64,000 nt of DNA from the NCBI GenBank assembly GCA_003222675.1, contig QHWT01000046.1, positions 51,987 to 115,986 on the forward strand. The letters are read 5' to 3'. Positions 4,652-62,904 of the stretch are shown piece after piece; the first letter of the stretch is position 1, and the number at the start of each line of letters is the position of its first letter. The DNA comes from Acidobacteriota bacterium (GTDB taxonomy: Bacteria; Acidobacteriota; Vicinamibacteria; Vicinamibacterales; 2-12-FULL-66-21). Both the position numbers and the translations under genes were made by a program. The notes beneath the pieces are model-generated. The model made no database searches and was not told where the DNA came from. It saw only the letters and a program-made list of their open reading frames with translations.

Positions 4652-5072
4652 AGGAATCCTCCTCCGGCGTGAGGCTGCACAAGGCATGCCCGGCTCATAC
4701 GCCGACGTTCCGCGCGGATCTTGCCATTCCGTGCGAAGACGGCGGACGCGGGGGCCGCGCGCGACTCAGCCGTTATCGTTAGCTGTTGTGATTTACAACG
4801 CTCGCGTCATGGATGACGGGCAGCGATATATCTTCATTAATCCAGCGCAACACGCAGTTGGATCGTTCCGCTTTGCGCCACTTTTCGTGACGTCCTTCCG
4901 TCTCGCCCGATGGTGTGGCTCGACAGGTGGAAGCCGCCGAGATCCGGGCAGTGAAGGTGAGGGAGTGAGCACGCAATTTCATGAGAATCCGGCGACACAC
5001 ACGGGCAGGTGCGTGCTTGACTTGTCGAGGTTTCCATGTAACGCTCTATCCGGATTTACGGATTGATATAGG

Positions 5073-7562: not shown

Positions 7563-8337
7563 GCTGATGACTCAAGGATTGCGGCTCATGCTGGCTCATG
7601 GTACGAGCCGGCGTGAGCCAAGGCCCATGCCGTGAGTCGGCCTGAGCCATGAGCCGTGAGTCCTGAGCCCTTTCTGCCAGCGGTTGATTCAAGAACCTGA
7701 CGAGCGGCATCAGCGCCCGGAAGGTCGCGACGAGCGTCGGGTAAAACTCGCGGCTGTGCGCGAAGGGGGCCGGAAACTCGCGGCCCGCGATGAACTGGCG
7801 GTACTTCAGATAGGCGGCCGCGGGATGATCGGCGGCAAAGCCGCGTGGTGTGCGCGTGAGCCGATCCCCGCCGACCTGCCCCAGACATTTACGGAAGGCG
7901 GTGGCGCGCACGGTCCTGTCAATCTCCGGCCACGTATTGGCGATGTGCGTGCGCACGCGATGGAGATCCGGCGGCTCGGGGTGATACATGCCGCCGCCCA
8001 TCCAAACCCACCCTCCAGCGATCTCGAAATAGAGGCCGGCGCCTTCGTGCTTCGGGAGGCCGCGCCACGGAAAAATCGCCGCCGCGTGCGTCTTCAGCGG
8101 TTTCTTGTTCTCGCTGAACCGCGTGTCGCGATACACGCGGTAGAGCGAATAGCGTGGCGACGCCACGAGCTCCGGCGCAAAGCGGCGGAAGTCGGCCGCC
8201 AGCCGCTCGACTACCACCGTCATCGGCTCGCGCACGTGCCGGTCGTACTCGTCCCGCCGCGCCTTGAACCATTCGCGGTCGTTATGCCTCGTAAGTGAAC
8301 GAAGAAAAGACAGAGTCTTGGGAGTGAACGGGGACAT
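7489..8337 (-). CDS. DUF2461 (TIGR02453) family protein with a repeat-encoded C-terminal extension
   Basis: The N-terminal 220 aa match the family ([32 protein letters not shown]...FIAGREF...). The last ~62 codons (7492-7677) are translated from the GGCTCA word-repeat hairpin and then run antisense into ahcY. Confidence 0.75.
7581..7670. repeat. inverted word-repeat hairpin (GGCTCATG / CATGAGCC words)
   Basis: Left arm GCGGCTCATGCTGGCTCATGG. Right arm CCTGAGCCATGAGCCGTGAGTCCTGAGCCC. GGCTCATGG and CCATGAGCC are exact reverse complements. Confidence 0.7.
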
Positions 8338-8344
8338 GGCTTAA

Positions 8345-8402
8345 GGCTCAGGGCTCATCGGTCAAACTGGCCTAGGCCCAAGCCGGCATGAGCCATGAGT
8401 CA
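8345..8402. repeat. inverted word-repeat hairpin, same GGCTCA family
   Basis: GGCTCAGGGCTCATCGG ... CCGGCATGAGCCATGAGTC. Sits just upstream of the DUF2461 start, so that gene is bracketed by the same word family on both sides. Confidence 0.65.
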
Positions 8403-10749: not shown

Positions 10750-10751
10750 AA

Positions 10752-10924
10752 GCTGGGAGCTGGGAGCTGGGAGCTGGGAGCTGGGAGCTGGGAGCTGGGA
10801 GCTGGGAGCTGGGAGCTGGGAGCTGGGAGCTGGGAGCTGAGCTGGGAGCTGGGAGCTGGGAGCTGGGAGCTGGGAGCTGGGAGCTGGGAGCTGGGAGCTG
10901 GGAGCTGGAAGCTGGAAGCTGGAA
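10752..10924. repeat. perfect heptanucleotide microsatellite (GCTGGGA)12 - GCTGA - (GCTGGGA)9 - (GCTGGAA)3
   Basis: Counted directly. Starts 3 nt after the stop codon at 10749. Confidence 0.95.
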
Positions 10925-10934
10925 GCTAAGAAAA

Positions 10935-10962: not shown

Positions 10963-10965
10963 GCC

Positions 10966-11006
10966 TTCTGTCTTCTGTCTTCTGTCTACTGCCTACTGTC
11001 TACTGC
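10966..11006. repeat. heptanucleotide tandem repeat (TTCTGTC)3(TACTGYC)3
   Basis: Counted directly. Abuts the stop of the minus-strand receptor gene (11009). Confidence 0.9.
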
Positions 11007-16339: not shown

Positions 16340-16349
16340 AACGCCTCAA

Positions 16350-16457
16350 TTTGGTGATTCCGTGATCTGGTGATTTGGTGAATTGCATCGCACCAGCGCG
16401 GGCGGTAGCCCGCGCAAGGCTGAATCACTAAATCACTGAATCACCAAATCACCAAAT
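16350..16457. repeat. inverted word-repeat hairpin (GGTGATT / AATCACY words) enclosing a GC stem-loop
   Basis: Left arm TTTGGTGATTCCGTGATCTGGTGATTTGGTGAATT. Inner stem GCGCGGG-CGGTAG-CCCGCGC. Right arm GAATCACTAAATCACTGAATCACCAAATCACCAAATCC. Confidence 0.75.
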
Positions 16458-16461
16458 CCGC

Positions 16462-16760
16462 TCAGTCTGCGCGAAGCGCGACCATCGGATCGACGCCGAA
16501 GCGACGGATCCACAGCTCATAGCTGATCACCGCAACAGAAGTCCGCCGGTCCGGTCGTCGTTATCGTTGAGGAGTCTGCCTCTGACGAGGGCCCTGCCGA
16601 GCGTGCGCAACTAACTGCCGCTCACGGGGGCGCCGTAAATGCGCTCCGCCTCGCGTCCGTCACCAAGGCTGATGGGCTGAGGCTCGACTGGGTAGGCATA
16701 CATGTCGGACAACGTAGGAGCAGGGTTCCGGACATTACGAATCGCTTCGTATGTGACGGA
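16462..16760 (-). pseudogene. relic of an ADOP/MacB-type permease, N-terminal periplasmic-domain fragment with in-frame stop and frameshift
   Basis: Minus-strand reading gives ...SVTYEAIRNVRNPAPTLSDMYAYPVEPQPISLGDGREAERIYGAPVSGS*LRTLGRALVRGRLLNDNDDR. After a frameshift it continues VAVISYELWIRRFGVDPMVALRAD*. This matches the order ...ERV.G..VS..fF..LGv.p.lGR.f...Dd....vaViS..lWqrrFggdp.vvGr of that family. Confidence 0.7.
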
Positions 16761-16792: not shown

Positions 16793-16970
16793 GACGCGGG
16801 GCGCGGGGCGCGGGGCGCGGGATCCCGCGTTCTTCATTTTTCAACCCGTACCCCACATTCCGCACCCCGCACCCCGCACCCCGCACCCCGCACCCCGCAT
16901 CCCGCACCCCGCCCCGCATCCCGCACCCCGCACCCCCCCGGACCTCTGTACCCCGCACCCCGCGCCCCGC
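16793..16970. repeat. G/C-rich heptad arrays in inverted orientation: (GCGGGGC)~4, loop, (CCGCAYC)~12
   Basis: Left arm GACGCGGGGCGCGGGGCGCGGGGCGCGGGA. Right arm CCGCACCCCGCACCCCGCACCCCGCACCCCGCATCCCGCACC... The arms are complementary apart from one transition per heptad. Confidence 0.85.
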
Positions 16971-17000
16971 AGCCCGACTTGGGCATGCGTGTTGCCACTC

Positions 17001-19366: not shown

Positions 19367-19443
<77 letters not shown>

Positions 19444-29904: not shown

Positions 29905-31011
29905 CTACACCCTCCTGAGCCAGCGTCGGCCGTGGATGCTGAAGTCCACGAGATCCTCTTCGCTCATGTTCGTGAAGCCGCGCGCCTTCAGGTCGCGCAC
30001 GAGCTCCGCATCGACGTCGTGAATGCGGAACTCGACGAGGCGATCGATCTTCACGCTGCCATACCCGACCTCGCGCATCTGCCGGATGAACTCCGGCGTG
30101 ACGTTGTGGATCCGCATCTTGACGAGATCATCGACATCGACATTCTTGTAGCCGAGATCGTTCAGCGCCTTGACGAACTCCGGCGTCACCCCGTGGATGC
30201 GCATGGCGACCAGATCGCTCGCACCGAGGCTCTTGTAACCGAGATCCGCGAATGCCTTGATGAACTCCGGCGAGACGCCGTGAATGCGGAACTGCACGAG
30301 TTGATCGAGATCCGCGTTCTTGAATCCGAGCTCCGCCATGCGCTTCACGAAATCCGACGACACACCGTGAATGCGGAGCTGAACGAGCTTGTCGATCGAC
30401 AGATCGCGATAACCGAGATCGCGCATCTCCTTGATGAATTCCGGGCTGACGCCGTGAATGCGCATCTTGACGAGATCGTCGATGCTCGCCTGCCCGAGAC
30501 CCTGCCGCTTTACTTCCTGCGCGAAGGCGGGCGTCGCGCCGTGGATGCGCGTCTTGATCAATTCGTCGCGATTGGGGTGGTAGCCGGCGTCGCGATAGCT
30601 CGTGACGTACTCACGACTGACGTCGTGGACCGCGAATCGCCAGATGTCGTCCATCGAGAGCGGTGTGTAGCCGAGGCGCGCCATGCCGGTGACGAAATCC
30701 TCGCTTCGCACGAACCGGAACTCGCCCGATCCACGGCCGTTCCTCATGCGGCCATCGAAATCGAACGTCCCTGCGTCGCGCTGCAGCGTGAAATGGACGG
30801 GGCCGTCAGCCTGTCGATCGGAGAGAGCTGAAACGCCGAAGCCGGCATTGCTGTCGTCGCGCTCGAGCTGTAGGTTGATGAGCCGCTCGTTGTTGCGCGT
30901 CCAGTAATTGGCCGTGTCAGAGTGCCAGGTCCCCGTAATGGGAGCACCAGTCGTGGGCTGGTCGCCGACGGCGACTGCGGTCAGGCATGCGGCAAGAAAA
31001 AGATGCTTCAT
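29905..31011 (-). CDS. secreted protein made of ~9 tandem 29-aa repeats (RIHGV[ST]PEF...LGY....D.LV)
   Basis: Signal peptide [16 protein letters not shown]. Repeat units include [58 protein letters not shown] and [29 protein letters not shown], with an 87-bp DNA period. Confidence 0.75.
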
Positions 31012-31055: not shown

Positions 31056-31661
31056 TCAGCGGTCGAGCAACCGCGGATCGGCCATCATCCGCGCGCGGAG
31101 CTGGCGGAATGCCTGACCCCGATGGCTCACGGCCGCCTTGCGCGCCCCATCGACCTCGCCGAGTGTGCAGCCGTACGGCGGGTAATAGAAGATGGGGTCG
31201 TACCCGAATCCATGCGTGCCGCGCGGTTCCCGCGCAATCTCGCCCGCAACGATGCCAATCGCTTCCGCGAGGATCGCGCCGCGATCCGCAAGCGTCGCGT
31301 GCGCAACGAATCGTGCGGGGCTCGTCGGCAATCCGCGCGCCTGCAGCTCGCGATAGATGGCGGCGAACTTCGTCGGATAGTGTGTGCCGTGCCACCGCGC
31401 GGAGTGGACCCCGGGTCCGTTGTCGAGTGCATCGATTTCGATCCCGGAGTCGTCGGCAACCGAGGGCAGGCCCGAATGCTCCGCGTAGTACAGCGCCTTC
31501 AATCGCGCGTTTGCGGCGAACGTGCTGCCGGTCTCCTCCGGCTCCGCGATCCCCGGGAACTCCGACAGCGTCCGCAGCTCGAACGGGATGCCGTGGAGAA
31601 TCTCCAGGATTTCACGCTGCTTGCCGCGATTGGTTGTCGCGATCAGGATCGGAGTGCTCAT
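31056..31661 (-). CDS. rdgB: non-canonical purine NTP pyrophosphatase (RdgB/HAM1 family)
   Basis: ORF 31056..31853 trimmed to MSTPILIATTNRGKQREI.... Motifs ADDSGIEIDALDNGPGVHSARW, GFGYDPIF and SHRGQA. The upstream part of the ORF is a translation of the decamer array. Confidence 0.9.
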   Translation of the reverse strand: MSTPILIATTNRGKQREILEILHGIPFELRTLSEFPGIAEPEETGSTFAANARLKALYYAEHSGLPSVADDSGIEIDALDNGPGVHSARWHGTHYPTKFAAIYRELQARGLPTSPARFVAHATLADRGAILAEAIGIVAGEIAREPRGTHGFGYDPIFYYPPYGCTLGEVDGARKAAVSHRGQAFRQLRARMMADPRLLDR

Positions 31662-31678
31662 TGTGCGGCGACTGCGGA

Positions 31679-31738
31679 GGCTGACGAAGGCTGACGAAGG
31701 CTGACGAAGGCTGACGAAGGCTGACGAAGGCTGACGAA
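31679..31738. repeat. perfect decamer tandem repeat (GGCTGACGAA)6
   Basis: Counted directly. Starts 18 nt upstream of the rdgB start codon on the transcribed (minus) strand. Confidence 0.95.
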
Positions 31739-32072
31739 GGAAACGGATTCTCCAAACGGAGCAACGGAGATAACGAAGACGAACGGAGGGTGCCCCTGCA
31801 ATACGGCCGCAGAGACAGGCAGACGACGCGTCCGCCACGGCCGGCCTAAGCAACGTGTGCCGGCCCCACGGAGGTCACGCGAGATCCGGATACGAGCAAC
31901 CCCGAATACCACGTTGTTCGTATCCGGACTCTCGCGTGACCTCCTGCCGCGCGAAGCGCGGCGCGGCGGACGCGTCGTCTCAGTGTCTCCGCGCCTGGCG
32001 CGTCTCAGCGTGACGCGGTGTTCTTCGTTTAACTCCGTTTTCTCCGTTGCTTCGTTTTTGAGATCCGTTTCC
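31739..32072. other. 334-bp nested inverted-repeat element (MITE-like or structured RNA) between rph and rdgB
   Basis: Terminal imperfect ~50-bp inverted repeats (GGAAACGGATTCTCCAAACGGAGCAACGGAGA... / ...TCTCCGTTGCTTCGTTTTTGAGATCCGTTTCC). Inner pair CAGACGACGCGTCCGCC (31820-31836) / GGCGGACGCGTCGTCT (31965-31980). Central 26-bp pair GGAGGTCACGCGAGATCCGGATACGA (31870-31895) / TCGTATCCGGACTCTCGCGTGACCTCC (31918-31944). Three additional local hairpins. Confidence 0.8.
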
Positions 32073-32092
32073 TCCGGCCCGCTCCGTCGTCT

Positions 32093-32824
32093 TCATTTCT
32101 TCACGAACTCTCCGACGACGCTCTTCTGCATCGCGATCAGCTCCTTGATGCCGTTGTCCGCCAGGTCCATCAGCGCATCGAGCGCGCGCTTGTCGAACGG
32201 CTGCCCTTCGGCGGTTCCCTGCAGCTCGATGAACCGTCCGTCGCCGGTCTTGACGAAATTCATGTCGACCTCGGCCTTCGAGTCTTCGTCGTACGCCAGG
32301 TCGAGCAGCGCCGCGCCGTCGACGATCCCGACGCTCGTGGCCGCGACATAATCGACGACCGGCACGTCGCGTATGAGCGCGAGCTCGCGCATGCGCTGCA
32401 GCGCGAGCACGAGCGCGACGAAGCCGCCGGTGATCGACGCGGTCCGCGTGCCGCCGTCCGCCTGGATGACGTCGCAATCGATCCAGATCGTGCGCTCGCC
32501 CAGATCCGTCATCTTCGTCACCGACCGCAAGGAGCGGCCGATCAGCCGCTGGATCTCCTGCGTCCGCCCGCCGACCTTGCCGGCGCTCGCCTCGCGCTGC
32601 GTGCGCGTGGAAGTCGCTCGCGGCAGCATGCCGTATTCCGCCGTCACCCAGCCCTTGCCGGTGTTGCGCAGGAACGGGGGCACCCGGTCCTCAACGCTGG
32701 CCGTGCAGATGACGCGCGTCCGGCCCACCTCGATCAAGACCGATCCTTCGGCATGCGCGAGAAATCCAGGAGTGAGTTTCGTGGGGCGAAGCTCCGAGGC
32801 AGAGCGTCCGTCACTGCGTGTCAT
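32093..32824 (-). CDS. rph: ribonuclease PH
   Basis: [44 protein letters not shown]...[13 protein letters not shown]...[15 protein letters not shown]...[18 protein letters not shown]. Confidence 0.95.
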
Positions 32825-37895: not shown

Positions 37896-38247
37896 GGGGG
37901 CGAACCAGATTCGACGGGAGTACGGTTCCGTAGGATGCGTGCCGAGGACCATCAACCTCGTTAAAAGATGGAAACAACCTAACTGCGGATACGCAGCTCG
38001 CTCTCGCAGCGTAAAAACCTGTGAGCGTCCGTCCTCATCAGCCTGTGGGTGGGGAACGGATGTCATTTCAGCAGGCTGGCTGACCTCGGCCGTCCCGGAC
38101 GAGAGCAGTGAGATTTTCCGGGGTTGGTTTCCGGCGGCTCTGGCCGTTTCTTTACGCCGGGAGCGACACTTCAGAAGCGGATACGCATCGTAGATTCCTG
38201 CGGGGATGTATTTTCGGACCCGGGTGCAACTCCCGGCGCCTCCACCA
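37896..38247 (+). ncRNA. ssrA: tmRNA (SsrA)
   Basis: The 5' end GGGGGCGAACCAGATTCGACGGG pairs with the 3' end GCGCCTCC-A-CCA, including the G3-U pair. T-arm-like GGACCCGGGTGCAACTCCCGG. Tag reading frame 37970-38014 ends ...ADTQLALAA-TAA. Confidence 0.93.
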
Positions 38248-38348: not shown

Positions 38349-38390
38349 CTCTCATCTCGGACCTCGGACCTCGGACCTCGCGCCTCGGCA
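38349..38390. repeat. heptad array (CTCGGAC)n, reverse complement of the GAGGTCC family
   Basis: CTCGGAC x3 perfect (38356-38376) with degenerate flanking units. Lies downstream of ssrA. Confidence 0.85.
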
Positions 38391-38432: not shown

Positions 38433-40049
38433 TTGGCTGATCCGGACCTCGATAATGCGAGGTGGATGTCCCCCGAGCAGTCCGAAAGTCCGATCGACGC
38501 GTTGCAGGCGCAGCTGCGGCAGACGCTCGACGCTCATCTAGCGTCGCTGGCCCAGCAGTACGAGCAGGCGATTGCCGATGCACGTCGCGCCGCGTCGCAG
38601 CAGGCTGAGCAGGCGGTCACCACACGGCTCGAGGCGGTCGAGGTCGAGTGGGCGAGCCGACTCGAATCGGAGGTCGCATCTGCGCGCGCCGAAGCACAGC
38701 GGCATCTCGTCACGGAGGTGACCAAGGTCCGCGTCGAAGCGGAGCAGCTGTCGGCCGAATCTGCGGCGCGTCTCCGTGAGGAACTCGAGGCCGCGCTCGC
38801 CGCCGAACGCCAGCGCGCGGAATCGCTGGTCCAGGCGGAAAGGCGCCGCGCGGAGCAGGAACTTGACGCCGCGCGTCGGGAAGCGCGTGAGGCGGCCGAT
38901 CGTCTGGAGCAGGCGACGCGAGCGCGGACGCAGGCGGAGGAACAGGCACGCATGCAGGCCGAAGCCCATTTCGCGGCGCAGGCACAGCTCACGCGTGAAG
39001 CGCGCGAGGCGGCCGATCGTCTGGAGCAGGCGACGCGAGCGCGGACGCAGGCCGAGGAACAGGCACGCACGCACGCCGAGGCGCATTCCGGCGCGCAGGC
39101 ACAGCTCGCGCGTGAAGCGCGCGAGGCGGCCGATCGCCTCGAGCAGGCGACACGAGCGCGGACGCAGGCGGAGGAACAGGCACGCACGCACGCCGAGGCG
39201 CATTCCGCCGCGCAGGCACAGCTCGCGCGTCACGCGGAGGAGCTGAAGCGGCAGCCGAAAACGACCGCTGGAACCGGCATCAACGTGGTCGAAGGTCTGC
39301 GTGCGATCGACGGGTCACGCACGCTGAGCGAAGCGCTCGGCACGGTGCTGCGGCACGCCTCGTCGATTGCACCGCGCGGCGCGGTATTTCTCATCAACGG
39401 CGCACGGCTGAAATCCTGGAGGACCGTCGGGTTTCCCGAGTTCGATGCGCAGCCGTTCGAGTCCGCGATCACCGGCACGGGTCTGCTCGCGCACGCGATT
39501 CAGACGGGCGAGGCTGTCGCCTCAGGCCCATCGCAGCCGCCGCCGACGTTCGCGTCGCTTCCAGGCGATCTCTCCGCGCTCGTCGTCCCCGTTGTCGTCG
39601 GCGGACGCGCGGTCGCTCTGGTGTATGCGGACAACGGCGGCAACAGCGAAATCGCGGCAGCGTGGGGCGACGCCGTCGAGAGCCTGGTGCGGCACGCGTC
39701 GACGCACCTGGCGCTGCTGACCGCGATGCGGACGGTCCAGGCCGTTGGCGCAGGTGCGCCTGTGGGCACCGGCGGCGCCGTCGCGCCCGAAGGCGACAGC
39801 CACGATCAGAGCGCGCGCCGATACGCGCGGCTCCTCGTCTCGGAAATCAAGTTGTACAACGAGGCGGCCGTCCGCGCGGGACGACAAGAGCGCGACCTGC
39901 TTCGCCGGCTGCGGCCCGAGATCGATCGCGCGCGCCGGCTTTACGAAGAACGGATCTCCGCCGCGGTCGGTGCGCGCGGCGCGTACTTCCAGCAGGAACT
40001 CGTGCAGACCCTCGCGGATGGCGACCCCGCGCTTCTCGGCAATTCCTGA
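38433..40049 (+). CDS. coiled-coil protein with GAF-like middle domain and conserved helical C-terminal domain
   Basis: The N-terminal ~270 aa are A/E/Q/R-rich coiled coil with three 39-aa repeats. Middle domain: LSEALGTVLRHASSIAPRGAVFLINGARLKSWRTVGF...VVPVVVGGRAVALVYADN. C-terminus: ARRYARLLVSEIKLYNEAAVRAGR...EIDRARRLYEERI. The TTG start is uncertain. The stop overlaps the next start (TGATG). Confidence 0.6.
   Translation: MADPDLDNARWMSPEQSESPIDALQAQLRQTLDAHLASLAQQYEQAIADARRAASQQAEQAVTTRLEAVEVEWASRLESEVASARAEAQRHLVTEVTKVRVEAEQLSAESAARLREELEAALAAERQRAESLVQAERRRAEQELDAARREAREAADRLEQATRARTQAEEQARMQAEAHFAAQAQLTREAREAADRLEQATRARTQAEEQARTHAEAHSGAQAQLAREAREAADRLEQATRARTQAEEQARTHAEAHSAAQAQLARHAEELKRQPKTTAGTGINVVEGLRAIDGSRTLSEALGTVLRHASSIAPRGAVFLINGARLKSWRTVGFPEFDAQPFESAITGTGLLAHAIQTGEAVASGPSQPPPTFASLPGDLSALVVPVVVGGRAVALVYADNGGNSEIAAAWGDAVESLVRHASTHLALLTAMRTVQAVGAGAPVGTGGAVAPEGDSHDQSARRYARLLVSEIKLYNEAAVRAGRQERDLLRRLRPEIDRARRLYEERISAAVGARGAYFQQELVQTLADGDPALLGNS
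38880..39230 (+). repeat. 3 x 117-bp near-identical tandem repeat inside the coiled-coil gene
   Basis: Copies begin at 38880, 38997 and 39114 (GAAGCGCG[TC]GAGGCGGCCGATCG...). They encode REAREAADRLEQATRARTQAEEQAR[MT][QH]AEAH[FS][AG]AQAQL[TA]. Confidence 0.9.
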
Positions 40050-46844: not shown

Positions 46845-46849
46845 GATGC

Positions 46850-46945
46850 GAGGTCCGAGGTCCGAGGTCCGAGGTCCGCGAAGCGGCGAACGCGGGCCAA
46901 CCGACAACCGCTAACCGACAACCGTTAACCGTTAACCGTTAACCG
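46850..46945. repeat. two adjacent heptad arrays: (GAGGTCC)4 and (AACCGNN)7
   Basis: GAGGTCC x4 at 46850-46877. Then AACCGAC AACCGCT AACCGAC AACCGTT AACCGTT AACCGTT AACCGTC at about 46899-46947. Confidence 0.9.
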
Positions 46946-50028: not shown

Positions 50029-50116
50029 GAGTCGTTCTCGCCCCGGGTAGTGTTCTGGAACGGTTTCGCAGGAGCCTGCTGGGAGAGGCTTGTCGAGGAT
50101 AGCACAAGACGGGACG

Positions 50117-50232
50117 ACGGAGGACGGTTGTCGGAGGACGGACCGAGGTCCGAGGTCCGAGATCCGACGTCCGAGATCCGACGTCCGAGACCGACGCGCG
50201 CACTTGAAGCCTGAAGCCTGAAGCCTGAAGCC
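50117..50232. repeat. three word families in tandem in a divergent promoter region
   Basis: ACGGAGGACGGTTGTCGGAGGACGG at 50117-50141. (GAGGTCC/GAGATCC/GACGTCC)7 at 50145-50193. (TGAAGCC)4 at 50205-50232. Confidence 0.9.
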
Positions 50233-54151: not shown

Positions 54152-54201
54152 ATAGCGAAGGAACGAAGGAATCGAAGGCTTATTTCGCGTCGGGAGGGGA
54201 A

Positions 54202-54238: not shown

Positions 54239-54316
54239 GGCTTCAGGCTTGAGACTTCAGGCTTCCGGGCTCGGGCTGCACGTCAGACATCCTTCTGCTT
54301 TCTGTCTCCTGTATCC
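54239..54316. repeat. heptad words GGCTTCA family and TTCTGYC family upstream of the ABC operon
   Basis: GGCTTCA GGCTTGA GACTTCA GGCTTCC GGGCTCG GGCTGCA at 54239-54280. CCTTCTGCTTTCTGTCTCCTGTATCC at 54291-54316. Confidence 0.75.
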
Positions 54317-56107: not shown

Positions 56108-56116
56108 CACACGGTG

Positions 56117-56200
56117 ACCAGTTACCAGTTACCAGTTCCACTGGCAACCGGGAAACGGCTACCGGCAACTGGCAACTGGCAACTGGCGACCGGCTACTGA
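56117..56200. repeat. intercistronic inverted heptad arrays (ACCAGTT)3 ... (GGCAACT)3
   Basis: Left arm ACCAGTTACCAGTTACCAGTTCC. Right arm GGCAACTGGCAACTGGCAACTGGC. The arms are complementary apart from one A/G transition per heptad. Lies between the two ABC genes. Confidence 0.85.
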
Positions 56201-56207
56201 CAGGTTC

Positions 56208-61782: not shown

Positions 61783-61861
61783 CGCGGTATCCTTTATCAC
61801 GACGGCCCCGGCCGCCGCCGTGCGCGACAGGTCGAGCCGGCTGACGATTGAAGGAGAGAAA

Positions 61862-62040
61862 AAGGCCCCGCTTTGCCGTGTGGGGAGCTCGTTTGAACCT
61901 GCGCTAAGCAGGTGGAACCACTGGTCAAGCCGCGCGTCAGGCTTCCTCTTGCAGAGGCATGCACACGGCGCGGCGTCGCGATTCACTTAGATGGAACATT
62001 GGCTCAAAGCGAGCCTCCGAAACCATCACGCGCAAAGCAG
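61862..62040 (-). ncRNA. ssrS: candidate 6S RNA (long irregular hairpin downstream of zapA)
   Basis: Minus-strand RNA CUGCUUUGCGCGUG...CACACGGCAAAGCGG forms a ~13-bp closing stem. Successive helices follow: GGAGGCUCG/CGAGCUCC, UUUGAGCC/GGUUCAAA, CUAAG/CUUAG, GCCGCGC/GCGCGGC. There is a large asymmetric internal loop and an apical CCUC-UGCAA-GAGG hairpin. The 3' end is followed by CCUUUUUC. Folded by eye only. Confidence 0.45.
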
Positions 62041-62074
62041 GGAACTCGAAAGATCGTCTACTCTACTACGGATC

Positions 62075-62410: not shown

Positions 62411-62423
62411 AGAGATCCTTGTC

Positions 62424-62494
62424 GGCTCCAGGCTCCAGGCTCCAGGTTCCAGGCTTCAGGATTTTCTGGAGCCTGAAGCCTGAAGTCCGAAGCC
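62424..62494. repeat. intercistronic inverted heptad arrays (GGCTCCA)3 GGTTCCA GGCTTCA ... TGGAGCC (TGAAGCC)2-3
   Basis: GGCTCCAG and CTGGAGCC are exact complements. Outer units differ by C/T transitions, which become G-U pairs in the minus-strand (sense) transcript. Confidence 0.85.
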
Positions 62495-62904
62495 TATAAG
62501 TTCAGCGCTTCTATCTGCTGGAGCATGTCGGCGACGCGACCGCGAATGTGCGCGCGTTCGTCGCGCAGCGCCGTGAGCTCCGCGCCGGTGCCCTCGGCGT
62601 CCGTCAGGCGGCCGCGCATGTTGTCCAGCTCGGCCCGGAGACGCGTGTTCTCTTCCGCCGCGCGCGCACCCTCGGTGCGCAGCCGGGCGCTCTCCTCCTT
62701 TGCCTGCGTGCTTTCGGCGCGCAGGCGGACGTTCTCTTGCTTCTCCTGCGCGCCTTCGGCGCGCAGCCGAGCATTTTCTTCTTTCTCCTGCGCGCTTTCA
62801 GCGCGCAGTCGGTCAACGACCCCGACCAGGAGCTTCACCTTCTCCTCGAGTCGATCGATTGGCTCGAGATCAACCCCGCGCGTTGCTACCGCTGCTTTTG
62901 CCAT
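62494..62904 (-). CDS. coiled-coil protein upstream of zapA (ZapB-like by position)
   Basis: Start set at MAKAAVATRG. Carries 14-aa repeats: ENARLRAEGAQEKQ ENVRLRAESTQAKE ESARLRTEGARAAE ENTRLRAELDN. The function is inferred from context only. Confidence 0.55.
   Translation of the reverse strand: MAKAAVATRGVDLEPIDRLEEKVKLLVGVVDRLRAESAQEKEENARLRAEGAQEKQENVRLRAESTQAKEESARLRTEGARAAEENTRLRAELDNMRGRLTDAEGTGAELTALRDERAHIRGRVADMLQQIEALNL

Follow-up and report, generated by a model that had tools for sequence, protein, structure and literature searches.

A nested inverted-repeat spacer between rph and rdgB in an Acidobacteriota lineage, with signs of growth from short tandem repeats

The mycobacterial interspersed repetitive units (MIRU) are intercistronic tandem repeats in operons, with 40-100 bp units in direct orientation only, about 40 loci and copy numbers that are polymorphic among strains. 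The hairpins of the Correia elements, or NEMIS, of Neisseria are cut by RNase III, and the repetitive extragenic palindrome (REP) of the malE-malF case reportedly stabilizes the upstream mRNA against 3' exonucleases. The nearest described feature to the one reported here is a set of 70-75 convergent pairs of GGGAATC heptamer arrays in Xanthomonas, which are intergenic, differ in length from one close relative to the next and lack an assigned function (Rehm et al. 2015, PMC4692102). An excess of 5-11-nt, especially 7-nt, intergenic repeats is attributed to some bacteria (Mrazek et al. 2007, as cited in PMC4692102 and PMC4679880; also PMC4060949), and no report of such intergenic arrays for Acidobacteria was found in the literature. 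Here we describe the spacer between rph and rdgB in a 64,000-nt stretch of contig QHWT01000046.1 from an uncultured Acidobacteriota lineage (assembly GCA_003222675.1; the whole stretch is called the window and is numbered from its first letter). On balance, and with little more than even confidence, we regard this spacer as a locally generated, fast-evolving quasi-palindrome of short tandem repeats, which is neither an inserted mobile element nor a described RNA family.

Like the Xanthomonas pairs, the arrays considered here are intergenic, have short units and are often opposed and capable of forming stem-loops, and the locus is kept while its length and sequence vary. The Xanthomonas arrays are mostly transcribed and without an assigned function, which is presumably also the case here. 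They differ from the present spacer in that its units are 9-10 nt long and specific to the locus, not one genome-wide heptamer, in that its arms enclose a 230-nt, GC-rich, nested palindrome, and in the host. The spacer stands apart from the described arrays in its locus-specific units, in the size of its nested, GC-rich core and in the evolutionary intermediates that relatives provide. The short tandemly repeated repetitive (STRR) heptamers of cyanobacteria and the TAACTGA repeats of Beggiatoaceae (PMC4679880) likewise draw on a limited heptamer vocabulary at many intergenic loci, and the window has two units at three loci each; the units and the phylum are different, and inverted pairs are not the rule there. 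With MIRU, the spacer shares tandem repeats between operon genes and a polymorphic copy number, whereas its unit is 10 nt long and attached to a palindrome.

The anatomy of the spacer is given in Table 1. The initial annotation, made from the letters of the window alone, had described a multi-branch, rod-like fold of nested pairings, and this was recovered when both strands were folded. The imperfect terminal inverted repeats that it reported proved to be 66-nt arms, its GCAGAGACA/TGTCTCCGC pair and its 16/17 pair both fell inside the second tier, its 26-bp central stem was found to be slightly longer than stated, and its internal hairpins, among which it counted this stem, were present; the fold has three side hairpins besides the central one. 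Complementarity rises inward from 73% in the outer arms through 84% in the middle tier to 94-100% in the central hairpin, the most perfect tier of the spacer. In the central hairpin, a single bulged G interrupts 26 Watson-Crick pairs, to which 4-5 further pairs are added, and the fold shows this hairpin as a 32-bp helix. The second-tier halves pair as helices of 12 and 18 bp, the outer arms are joined by helices of 17, 23 and 4 bp, and the leader next to rdgB pairs with 32082-32091 by short helices that make up the base of the rod.

Altogether, about 350 nt, comprising the paired arms and the core that they enclose, fold into a single rod. The minimum free energy of the spacer was -247.4 kcal/mol (z = -11.6) for the mRNA strand and -256.9 kcal/mol (z = -13.1) for the opposite strand, and none of the 100 dinucleotide-preserving shuffles against which significance was judged folded as well. 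Mismatches within the palindrome were without strand bias (six G.T vs. five A.C) and the antisense strand folded slightly better than the mRNA strand; the lack of bias in the mismatches points to an origin at the DNA level.

The outer arms form an inverted pair of arrays in intergenic DNA, with units of the AACGRAG type next to rph and CTYCGTT units next to rdgB. Tandem Repeats Finder (TRF) detected a period of 9 in the rph-proximal arm (32021-32048) and, in agreement with the decamer array of the initial annotation, a period of 10 at 31678-31740 with 6.3 copies and 100% matches; the six copies of GGCTGACGAA are exact. The decamer array, which separates the rod from the rdgB start, is predicted to be mostly single-stranded. 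Because arrays of this kind are common genome-wide, as described below, the so-called terminal inverted repeats are better seen as two degenerate 9-10-nt arrays, similar in nature to the perfect decamers at 31679-31738, and these decamers are the most recent addition to one of the two.

Table 1. Features of the rph-rdgB spacer in the window, and size of the same spacer in close relatives
Feature or locus	Position in window, or spacer length	Strand	RdgB identity	Details and basis
rph (RNase PH), upstream gene of the pair	32093-32824	minus		open reading frame (ORF) and translation
rdgB (Ham1-type non-canonical NTP pyrophosphatase), downstream gene	31056-31661	minus		ORF, homologues
Intercistronic spacer, whole	31662-32092, 431 nt	minus		rph-rdgB gap
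Leader adjoining rdgB start, 17 nt	31662-31678	minus		mRNA CCUCCGCAGUCGCCGCACA-AUG, no Shine-Dalgarno
Perfect (GGCTGACGAA)6 decamer array	31679-31738			mRNA UUCGUCAGCC x6; exact match and TRF
Outer inverted repeat	31723-31788 / 32023-32088			66-nt arms, 73% complementary
rdgB-proximal arm (3' arm in mRNA)	31735-31785			degenerate 9-10-nt units, core CTCCGTT/CTTCGTT
rph-proximal arm (5' arm in mRNA)	32026-32076			purine-rich AACGGAG/AACGAAG units
Second-tier inverted repeat (I2)	31808-31839 / 31962-31993			32 nt, 84% complementary
Second-tier stem, left half	31805-31838			GCAGAGACA ... CAGACGACGCGTCCGCC
Second-tier stem, right half	31963-31995			GGCGGACGCGTCGTCT ... TGTCTCCGC
Side hairpin GGCCGGC / GCCGGCC, 13-nt loop	31839-31865			common to L177 and L088
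Central hairpin	31870-31944; arms 31870-31900 / 31913-31944			I3, 15 nt, 100%; I4, 16 nt, 94%
Side hairpin GCCGCGC-GAA-GCGCGGC	31946-31962			fold
Small hairpin CGCGTC-TCAGCGT-GACGCG	31999-32017			the spacer's only terminator-like match, on the antisense (+) strand
L179	1 nt		82%	empty
L173-L176	36-37 nt		82%	empty
L090	38 nt		82%	empty
L087	40 nt		86%	empty
L172	49 nt		82%	empty
L171	76 nt		85%	remnant: only the rdgB-proximal arm segment TTCGTTTTGAGAATCCGTTGCCTCCG
P0002	173 nt		86%	known by length alone
L089 / L088	197 / 206 nt		83%	homologous element
L178	244 nt		85%	homologous element
L177	at least 284 nt		82%	homologous element; contig begins within palindrome
Window	431 nt		reference	full element

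Six independent metagenome assemblies of the same species (L081-L086) carry a spacer that is identical to that of the window base for base except for the copy number of the decamer array, and the spacer is not an assembly artefact. Six copies were present in the window, L082, L083, L085 and L086, and three in L081 and L084. The array thus has the properties of a variable-number tandem repeat, a short perfect head-to-tail unit with six- and three-copy alleles in otherwise identical spacers. The same-species contigs differed from the window by 3-8 scattered single-nucleotide polymorphisms per 3-6 kb, which are too few to gauge constraint on a 431-nt element. L085 departed from this pattern in that 33 of its 40 differences fell within a 190-nt part of rph at the end of the contig (window 32432-32618), a clustering suggestive of a recombination tract or of chimeric assembly.

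Close relatives, taken as contigs encoding RdgB homologues at 82-87% identity (the identities in Table 1 are from the RdgB alignment), present, together with the window, the spacer in graded sizes from 1 to 431 nt. The initial annotation had suggested such a comparison of related genomes, and it showed that the arms are shared and the cores variable: in a multiple alignment, both arms were common to all element-bearing loci, and the cores differed. Empty, remnant and full states stood side by side within the window's own clade in the RdgB tree. The most economical explanation is that the element was reduced or lost more than once, but this tree is a rough UPGMA (unweighted pair-group) tree of RdgB that only suggests the order of gains and losses. 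A scan of metagenome contigs with RdgB returned only relatives of at most 70% identity and no useful spacers. In L177 (positions 1-284), the contig itself starts inside the palindrome, and such hairpins may therefore break short-read assemblies and be under-represented in metagenome bins.

Several differences among these loci are of the kind expected from slippage and from rearrangement around a hairpin. A single 9-nt arm unit distinguishes the spacers of L088 and L089, which have the same RdgB. The position of the decamer array is taken by one or two copies of a proto-repeat, TCCGTCNACC, in L178 and L088, and in L177 a 21-mer has expanded there to four copies. The core of L088 is a module of GACGCGTCCGCC, a GGCCGGC hairpin and GGAGGTCRCGC, and it is collinear with the antisense strand of the window (score 50 vs. 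31 for the sense strand). The core of L177 is collinear with the sense strand (92 vs. 42), and that of L178 is different from the window's. The window carries the L088-type module plus its inverted partner, which flank the central hairpin. The 3' half of the central hairpin has diverged from its L177 orthologue by six substitutions and one indel in 31 columns (about 23%); despite this divergence, the two halves in the window are still Watson-Crick complementary and contain no G.U pairs.

Template switching homogenizes and expands the arms of inverted repeats and inverts their spacers (PMC5941160, PMC8604942, PMC13100816). The homogenized arms, the growth of the inverted repeat and the segment inversion seen in the window relative to L088, L177 and L178 match these outcomes, from which we infer that quasi-palindrome template switching (see also PMC7202029) may have acted here. 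The described cases involve repeats of tens of bases, whereas the present spacer has about 350 nt of palindrome plus tandem-array expansion. We propose that replication slippage would repeatedly expand 9-10-nt units at this junction (7-nt units elsewhere), that template switching between inverted copies would duplicate, symmetrize and sometimes flip material around the hairpin, and that deletions would remove the element again in some lineages. Growth by slippage and template switching would proceed from the center, so that the outer arms would be old and degenerate and the central hairpin most perfect.

The initial annotation had offered insertion of a miniature inverted-repeat transposable element (MITE) as one explanation, and it had proposed a search for further copies of the termini and the stem. 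A non-autonomous transposon of this kind inserted between rph and rdgB would account for the long imperfect terminal inverted repeats, for the patchy presence and absence among close relatives and for termini that are conserved above neutral sites. The search covered the 64-kb window (about 1% of the source genome), 179 fetched loci (1.34 Mb) and collections of plasmids, phages and viral contigs. Neither blastn of the spacer nor motif searches revealed a second copy in the window, and the exact two-unit motif occurs nowhere else in it. Copies detected by blastn in the 1.34 Mb of related loci were all inside the rph-rdgB spacers of L088, L089, L177 and L178, the same junction in every case, and none was found in plasmids and phages by BLAST or in viral contigs by two pattern scans. 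The empty site of L087 could be aligned to the sequence on either side of the window element (left, GACGGAGCGGGCC; right, GTCGCC...CAATG), and this comparison revealed no target-site duplication, only a 3-nt GCC microhomology. Of the features of a MITE, the locus thus has terminal inverted repeats and lacks dispersed copies, a target duplication and a uniform, all-or-none unit; its sizes are graded, its cores are unrelated or flipped, and its terminal repeats are tandem arrays of a kind seen genome-wide with other units. Insertion as a MITE is very unlikely on this evidence, and an in-place origin rather than transposition is likely.

The same searches distinguish the spacer from families of dispersed palindromes. 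Like the REP sequences and bacterial interspersed mosaic elements (BIME) of enterobacteria and pseudomonads (PMC2817692, PMC8266576), it is an extragenic palindrome in an operon, predicted to be transcribed, and a mosaic of alternating orientation. REP sequences have one conserved 20-40-nt consensus, occur in hundreds of copies and are tied to a RAYT transposase. The present element is single-copy in all sequence searched, and no hairpin of the spacer recurred in the window or in the related loci. Correia elements and similar MITEs share with it terminal inverted repeats and, if it is transcribed as we expect, co-transcription with neighbors (PMC2229807). They are 100-155 bp long, number in the hundreds and have a TA duplication, and none of these properties was found here. 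Correia elements may nevertheless be the closest analogue for a possible mode of action.

The rph-rdgB spacer is an example of something that the initial annotation overlooked: the intergenic DNA of this genome is generally prone to short tandem arrays, which often come as inverted pairs. The window holds 20 heptamer arrays, nearly all intergenic and with 16 different canonical heptamers among them. About 21 of the 27 short-unit arrays with at least three copies were intergenic, and intergenic DNA makes up about 12% of the window. Arrays occurred in convergent, co-directional and divergent spacers alike, and the relatives are likewise rich in intergenic short-unit arrays. At three sites, 7-8-nt arrays form an inverted pair across a short GC hairpin or loop and fold significantly better than shuffled sequence: 16345-16465 (z -8.0), 56108-56207 (z -3.5) and 62411-62500 (z -3.5), one of them between divergent genes and two between co-directional genes. 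The 9-10-nt units of the rph-rdgB locus are absent elsewhere in the window.

Some heptamers recurred. When rotations and reverse complements were counted together, arrays of the CGAGGTC class were found at 38356-38388, 46849-46878 and 50143-50189 and those of the TGAAGCC class at 50205-50232, 54239-54265 and 62466-62495, loci that are up to 24 kb apart. The 20 arrays contain six identical-unit pairs vs. about 0.16 expected, indicating that the arrays are not independent local accidents and draw on a limited repeat vocabulary.

An element of similar design was found at the same junction in a more distant relative, L002, whose Rph is 79% identical. Its 253-nt rph-rdgB gap consists almost entirely of (AGGTTCTACA)-type decamers that face their own complements across the gap, and it forms a rod of 249 nt (4724-4972, -138 kcal/mol, z -14.35) whose sequence is not related to that of the window element. 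The L002 rod bridges stop and start exactly, since the UAG that ends rph is paired with a CUA overlapping the rdgB AUG. The L002 rod appears to be an independent rise of the same architecture at the same junction, i.e., a case of convergence.

Other repeats in the window are recorded here in their own right. A 14-mer, CGGAGGACGGTTGT, is tandem at 2107-2138 and again at 50112-50142, 48 kb away; its CGGAGGA core resembles the ACGGAG arm units and the CGAAGGAA units at 54156-54178. Between convergent genes, (AGCTGGG)x25.6 at 10751-10927 begins right after a stop codon and is followed by a GGCTGGC/GCCAGCC hairpin and (CTTCTGT/CTACTGT)x6 at 10963-11006; these two arrays are not complementary (fold z -0.4). 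At 16795-16821, (CGCGGGG)x4 faces (CCCGCAC)x18.6 at 16845-16976 in a 1.56-kb stretch to which a crude gene caller assigned no gene, and the minus strand of the second array, (GTGCGGG)n, is G-quadruplex-capable like repeats in PMC4692102. An 832-nt stretch between co-directional genes (7563-8394), likewise left without a gene by this caller, has a rather strong fold density of -0.48 kcal/mol per nt and includes a (TGAGCCA)x3.9 array at 7643-7669. The gene at 38433-40049 contains a 117-nt tandem repeat (38872-39230, 3.1 copies, 92% identity) that is partly collapsed in L088.

The genes on both sides of the spacer are ordinary members of an operon-like row. Pfam domains RNase_PH and RNase_PH_C (rph) and Ham1p_like (rdgB) were called on contigs encoding an identical RdgB. 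On same-species contigs the row reads amidase, germane-domain gene, rph, rdgB and a 373-aa gene, all co-directional, and the remaining junctions are tiny or overlapping. The closest Rph matches in a species-representative genome set were from uncultured Acidobacteriota and Vicinamibacterales and did not exceed 79% identity. The initial annotation had held that rph and rdgB are normally adjacent and that here they are 431 bp apart. Both statements agree with our data, since the ORF coordinates give this gap, and in most fetched genomes in which both genes were detected the distance was less than 70 nt, mostly 10-70 nt. In the window, the gene after rdgB (29905-31011, minus strand, about 369 aa, no Pfam hit on record) is made up of tandem repeats of 87 nt, or 29 aa, whose motif is RIHGV(S/T)PEF(I/V)K (TRF 30085-30483).

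The rdgB start is the ATG at 31661 (MSTPILIATTNRGKQ), where all 201-aa homologues begin. The open frame continues upstream to 31853 across the decamer array, and the view that this N-terminal extension is spurious was thereby upheld. The rdgB starts read ATGA in the window (31658-31661) and in L087, L088, L090, L171-L173, L177 and L178, though residue 2 varies (S, K, N). Coupling of rdgB to an upstream ORF through this conserved ATGA overlap was considered and rejected, as the frame varies among lineages and is often without a start codon. No Shine-Dalgarno sequence precedes rdgB in any lineage examined, the window included. At a distance of about 15-20 nt upstream of the ATG, most loci with an element or a remnant have a CCTCCG motif, which is shared by L171, L172, L177, L178 and L088.

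The spacer is probably co-transcribed as part of an operon of the amidase gene, the germane-domain gene, rph and rdgB. No sigma-70-type promoter consensus was found in the spacer and no intrinsic terminator on its minus (mRNA) strand, the one match being weak and on the plus strand (31999-32017); read-through within the operon is therefore likely. An internal promoter for rdgB was also considered and rejected: there was no consensus match, and a conserved GAGAAT-like hexamer had no convincing -35 partner. These results bear as well on whether the spacer could be a separate gene for a small or structured RNA, driven by a promoter of its own, or else an rdgB leader resembling a riboswitch. The very stable fold would suit such an RNA, as would a segment with -10-like GAGAAT/AAGGAT/GAGGAT that is kept upstream of rdgB in five lineages. 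At the Rfam gathering threshold, the whole window yielded only three matches, to tmRNA, 6S RNA and tRNA and each outside the spacer, and a permissive scan of 31500-32250 matched only models of plant and animal microRNA-precursor hairpins, at 22-37 bits vs. thresholds of 70-268; these eukaryotic matches, far under threshold, merely reflect a long hairpin. With neither a promoter nor a sense-strand terminator, a core that is not conserved and no informative covariation (two double-sided changes in 29 arm pairs, from three homologues only), an RNA gene or leader of this kind is barely credible. The suggestion of the initial annotation that the spacer is an unclassified structured RNA holds in the sense that no Rfam model fits, and in no other sense.

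The three RNA genes that scored above the Rfam gathering thresholds are at 37896-38247 (tmRNA, plus strand), 61861-62046 (6S RNA, minus strand) and 19367-19440 (tRNA, plus strand). A (CTCGGAC)x4.7 array (38356-38388) comes after the tmRNA gene.

Sequence conservation is concentrated in the arms. For the rdgB-proximal arm of the window, identity was 81-86% with the arms of L088, L177 and L178 and 82% with the L171 remnant, and the rph-proximal arm is 81-91% identical to those of L178 and L088. Across the same lineages, identity at four-fold degenerate sites is 56-68% in rdgB, rph and the germane-domain gene, where about 37% would be expected at random. The arms are also closer to their orthologues than to their own partners (73%). 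Selection, as far as these comparisons go, seems to be aimed mainly at retention of the arms. A selected function of any kind for the spacer is possible, though we put it somewhat short of probable.

If there is no function, slippage and template switching would build and erode palindromic spacers wherever intergenic DNA tolerates them, and the element would be a neutral by-product. Its patchy presence, with close relatives doing well on spacers of 1-49 nt, the free turnover of the core, the lack of strand asymmetry and of informative covariation, and the occurrence of arrays in every intergenic orientation class all fit such a by-product. The identity of the arms in excess of four-fold sites does not, nor does the 3'-arm segment that is kept without a partner in L171 and L088, nor an equally large rod at the same junction in the distant L002, and we consider a wholly neutral origin rather unlikely.

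The arms could instead be read at the level of DNA. One strand carries about 11-12 ACGRAG cores at 9-10-bp spacing and the other arm has 5-6 in inverted orientation, and such ACGRAG/CTYCGT units with a phase of about 10 bp might be a binding array for a protein (a nucleoid protein, a regulator or, as in BIMEs, a gyrase-type enzyme) or form a cruciform that affects replication or supercoiling. This would be consistent with the retention of arm sequence even where it is unpaired, with the equivalence of both strands and with the recurrence of CGRAGGA-type units at 2107, 50112 and 54156. It is opposed by the lack of a known binding protein, by the absence of the exact two-unit motif elsewhere in the window and by relatives that keep the same operon without the element, and we regard a DNA-level element as quite improbable.

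A broader proposal is that the rod is an overgrown case of a system in Vicinamibacteria-like Acidobacteriota, in which a limited vocabulary of 7-10-nt units would be written as inverted array pairs by a dedicated or lineage-specific mechanism and kept as intergenic RNA or DNA punctuation for processing, stability or the hand-over of ribosomes from stop to start. Such punctuation would fit the pairing of stop and start in L002, the absence of a Shine-Dalgarno sequence before rdgB in all lineages and the conservation of the arms above neutral sites. It is nonetheless improbable in our estimation.

The reading that we prefer, a quasi-palindrome generated in place, has several observations to weigh against it. 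The arms are conserved even where they are unpaired (the L171 remnant and the distal 3' arm of L088), which hints at a sequence-specific role that growth in place does not explain. The same heptamer units occur at separate loci, which purely local slippage does not predict. Growth within an ancestral intercistronic hairpin was not supported, as the short spacers of element-free relatives folded no better than shuffles (z -1.8 to +1.0). The tree on which gains and losses were placed is only the rough one, and the DNA searched, given its small share of the source genome, leaves room for a low-copy dispersed family. The ordinary 44-nt spacer downstream of rdgB is as conserved as the arms (76-86%), so that arm conservation is by itself unremarkable. 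Finally, the RNase III, stability and translation steps set out below are all drawn by analogy.

If the quasi-palindrome acts in the cell, a role as a processing or stability element in the operon mRNA is plausible by comparison with described intercistronic palindromes. The spacer would be transcribed within the rph-rdgB mRNA, where arms and core would form the rod; as the arms pair with each other, the insertion would be largely self-contained. The 26-32-bp central duplex, and with it the 18-bp second-tier helix, would be a substrate of the RNase III type, and the fold provides the duplex of at least about 20 bp that such a hairpin needs in a region that is presumably transcribed. A cut would leave the rph mRNA with a 3' stem that blocks 3' exonucleases and would uncouple rdgB expression from that of rph. 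The unpaired, pyrimidine-rich decamer array would hold the rdgB start, which has no Shine-Dalgarno sequence, away from the rod, and the polymorphism of six vs. three copies could alter the spacing between the two.

On present evidence, the cautious view is that the spacer is a lineage-specific curiosity of a known general type. It indicates that a long, near-perfect hairpin can arise and be tolerated in a housekeeping operon without a transposon, and the relatives capture stages of hairpin growth, from none through a remnant to 200, 244 and 431 nt. It also carries a warning for annotation, in that such spacers break metagenome assemblies, yield false N-terminal extensions of ORFs and mimic MITEs or new RNAs. 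If the conserved arms, and the inverted arrays found genome-wide, are functional, they would represent an undescribed layer of intercistronic control in abundant soil bacteria.

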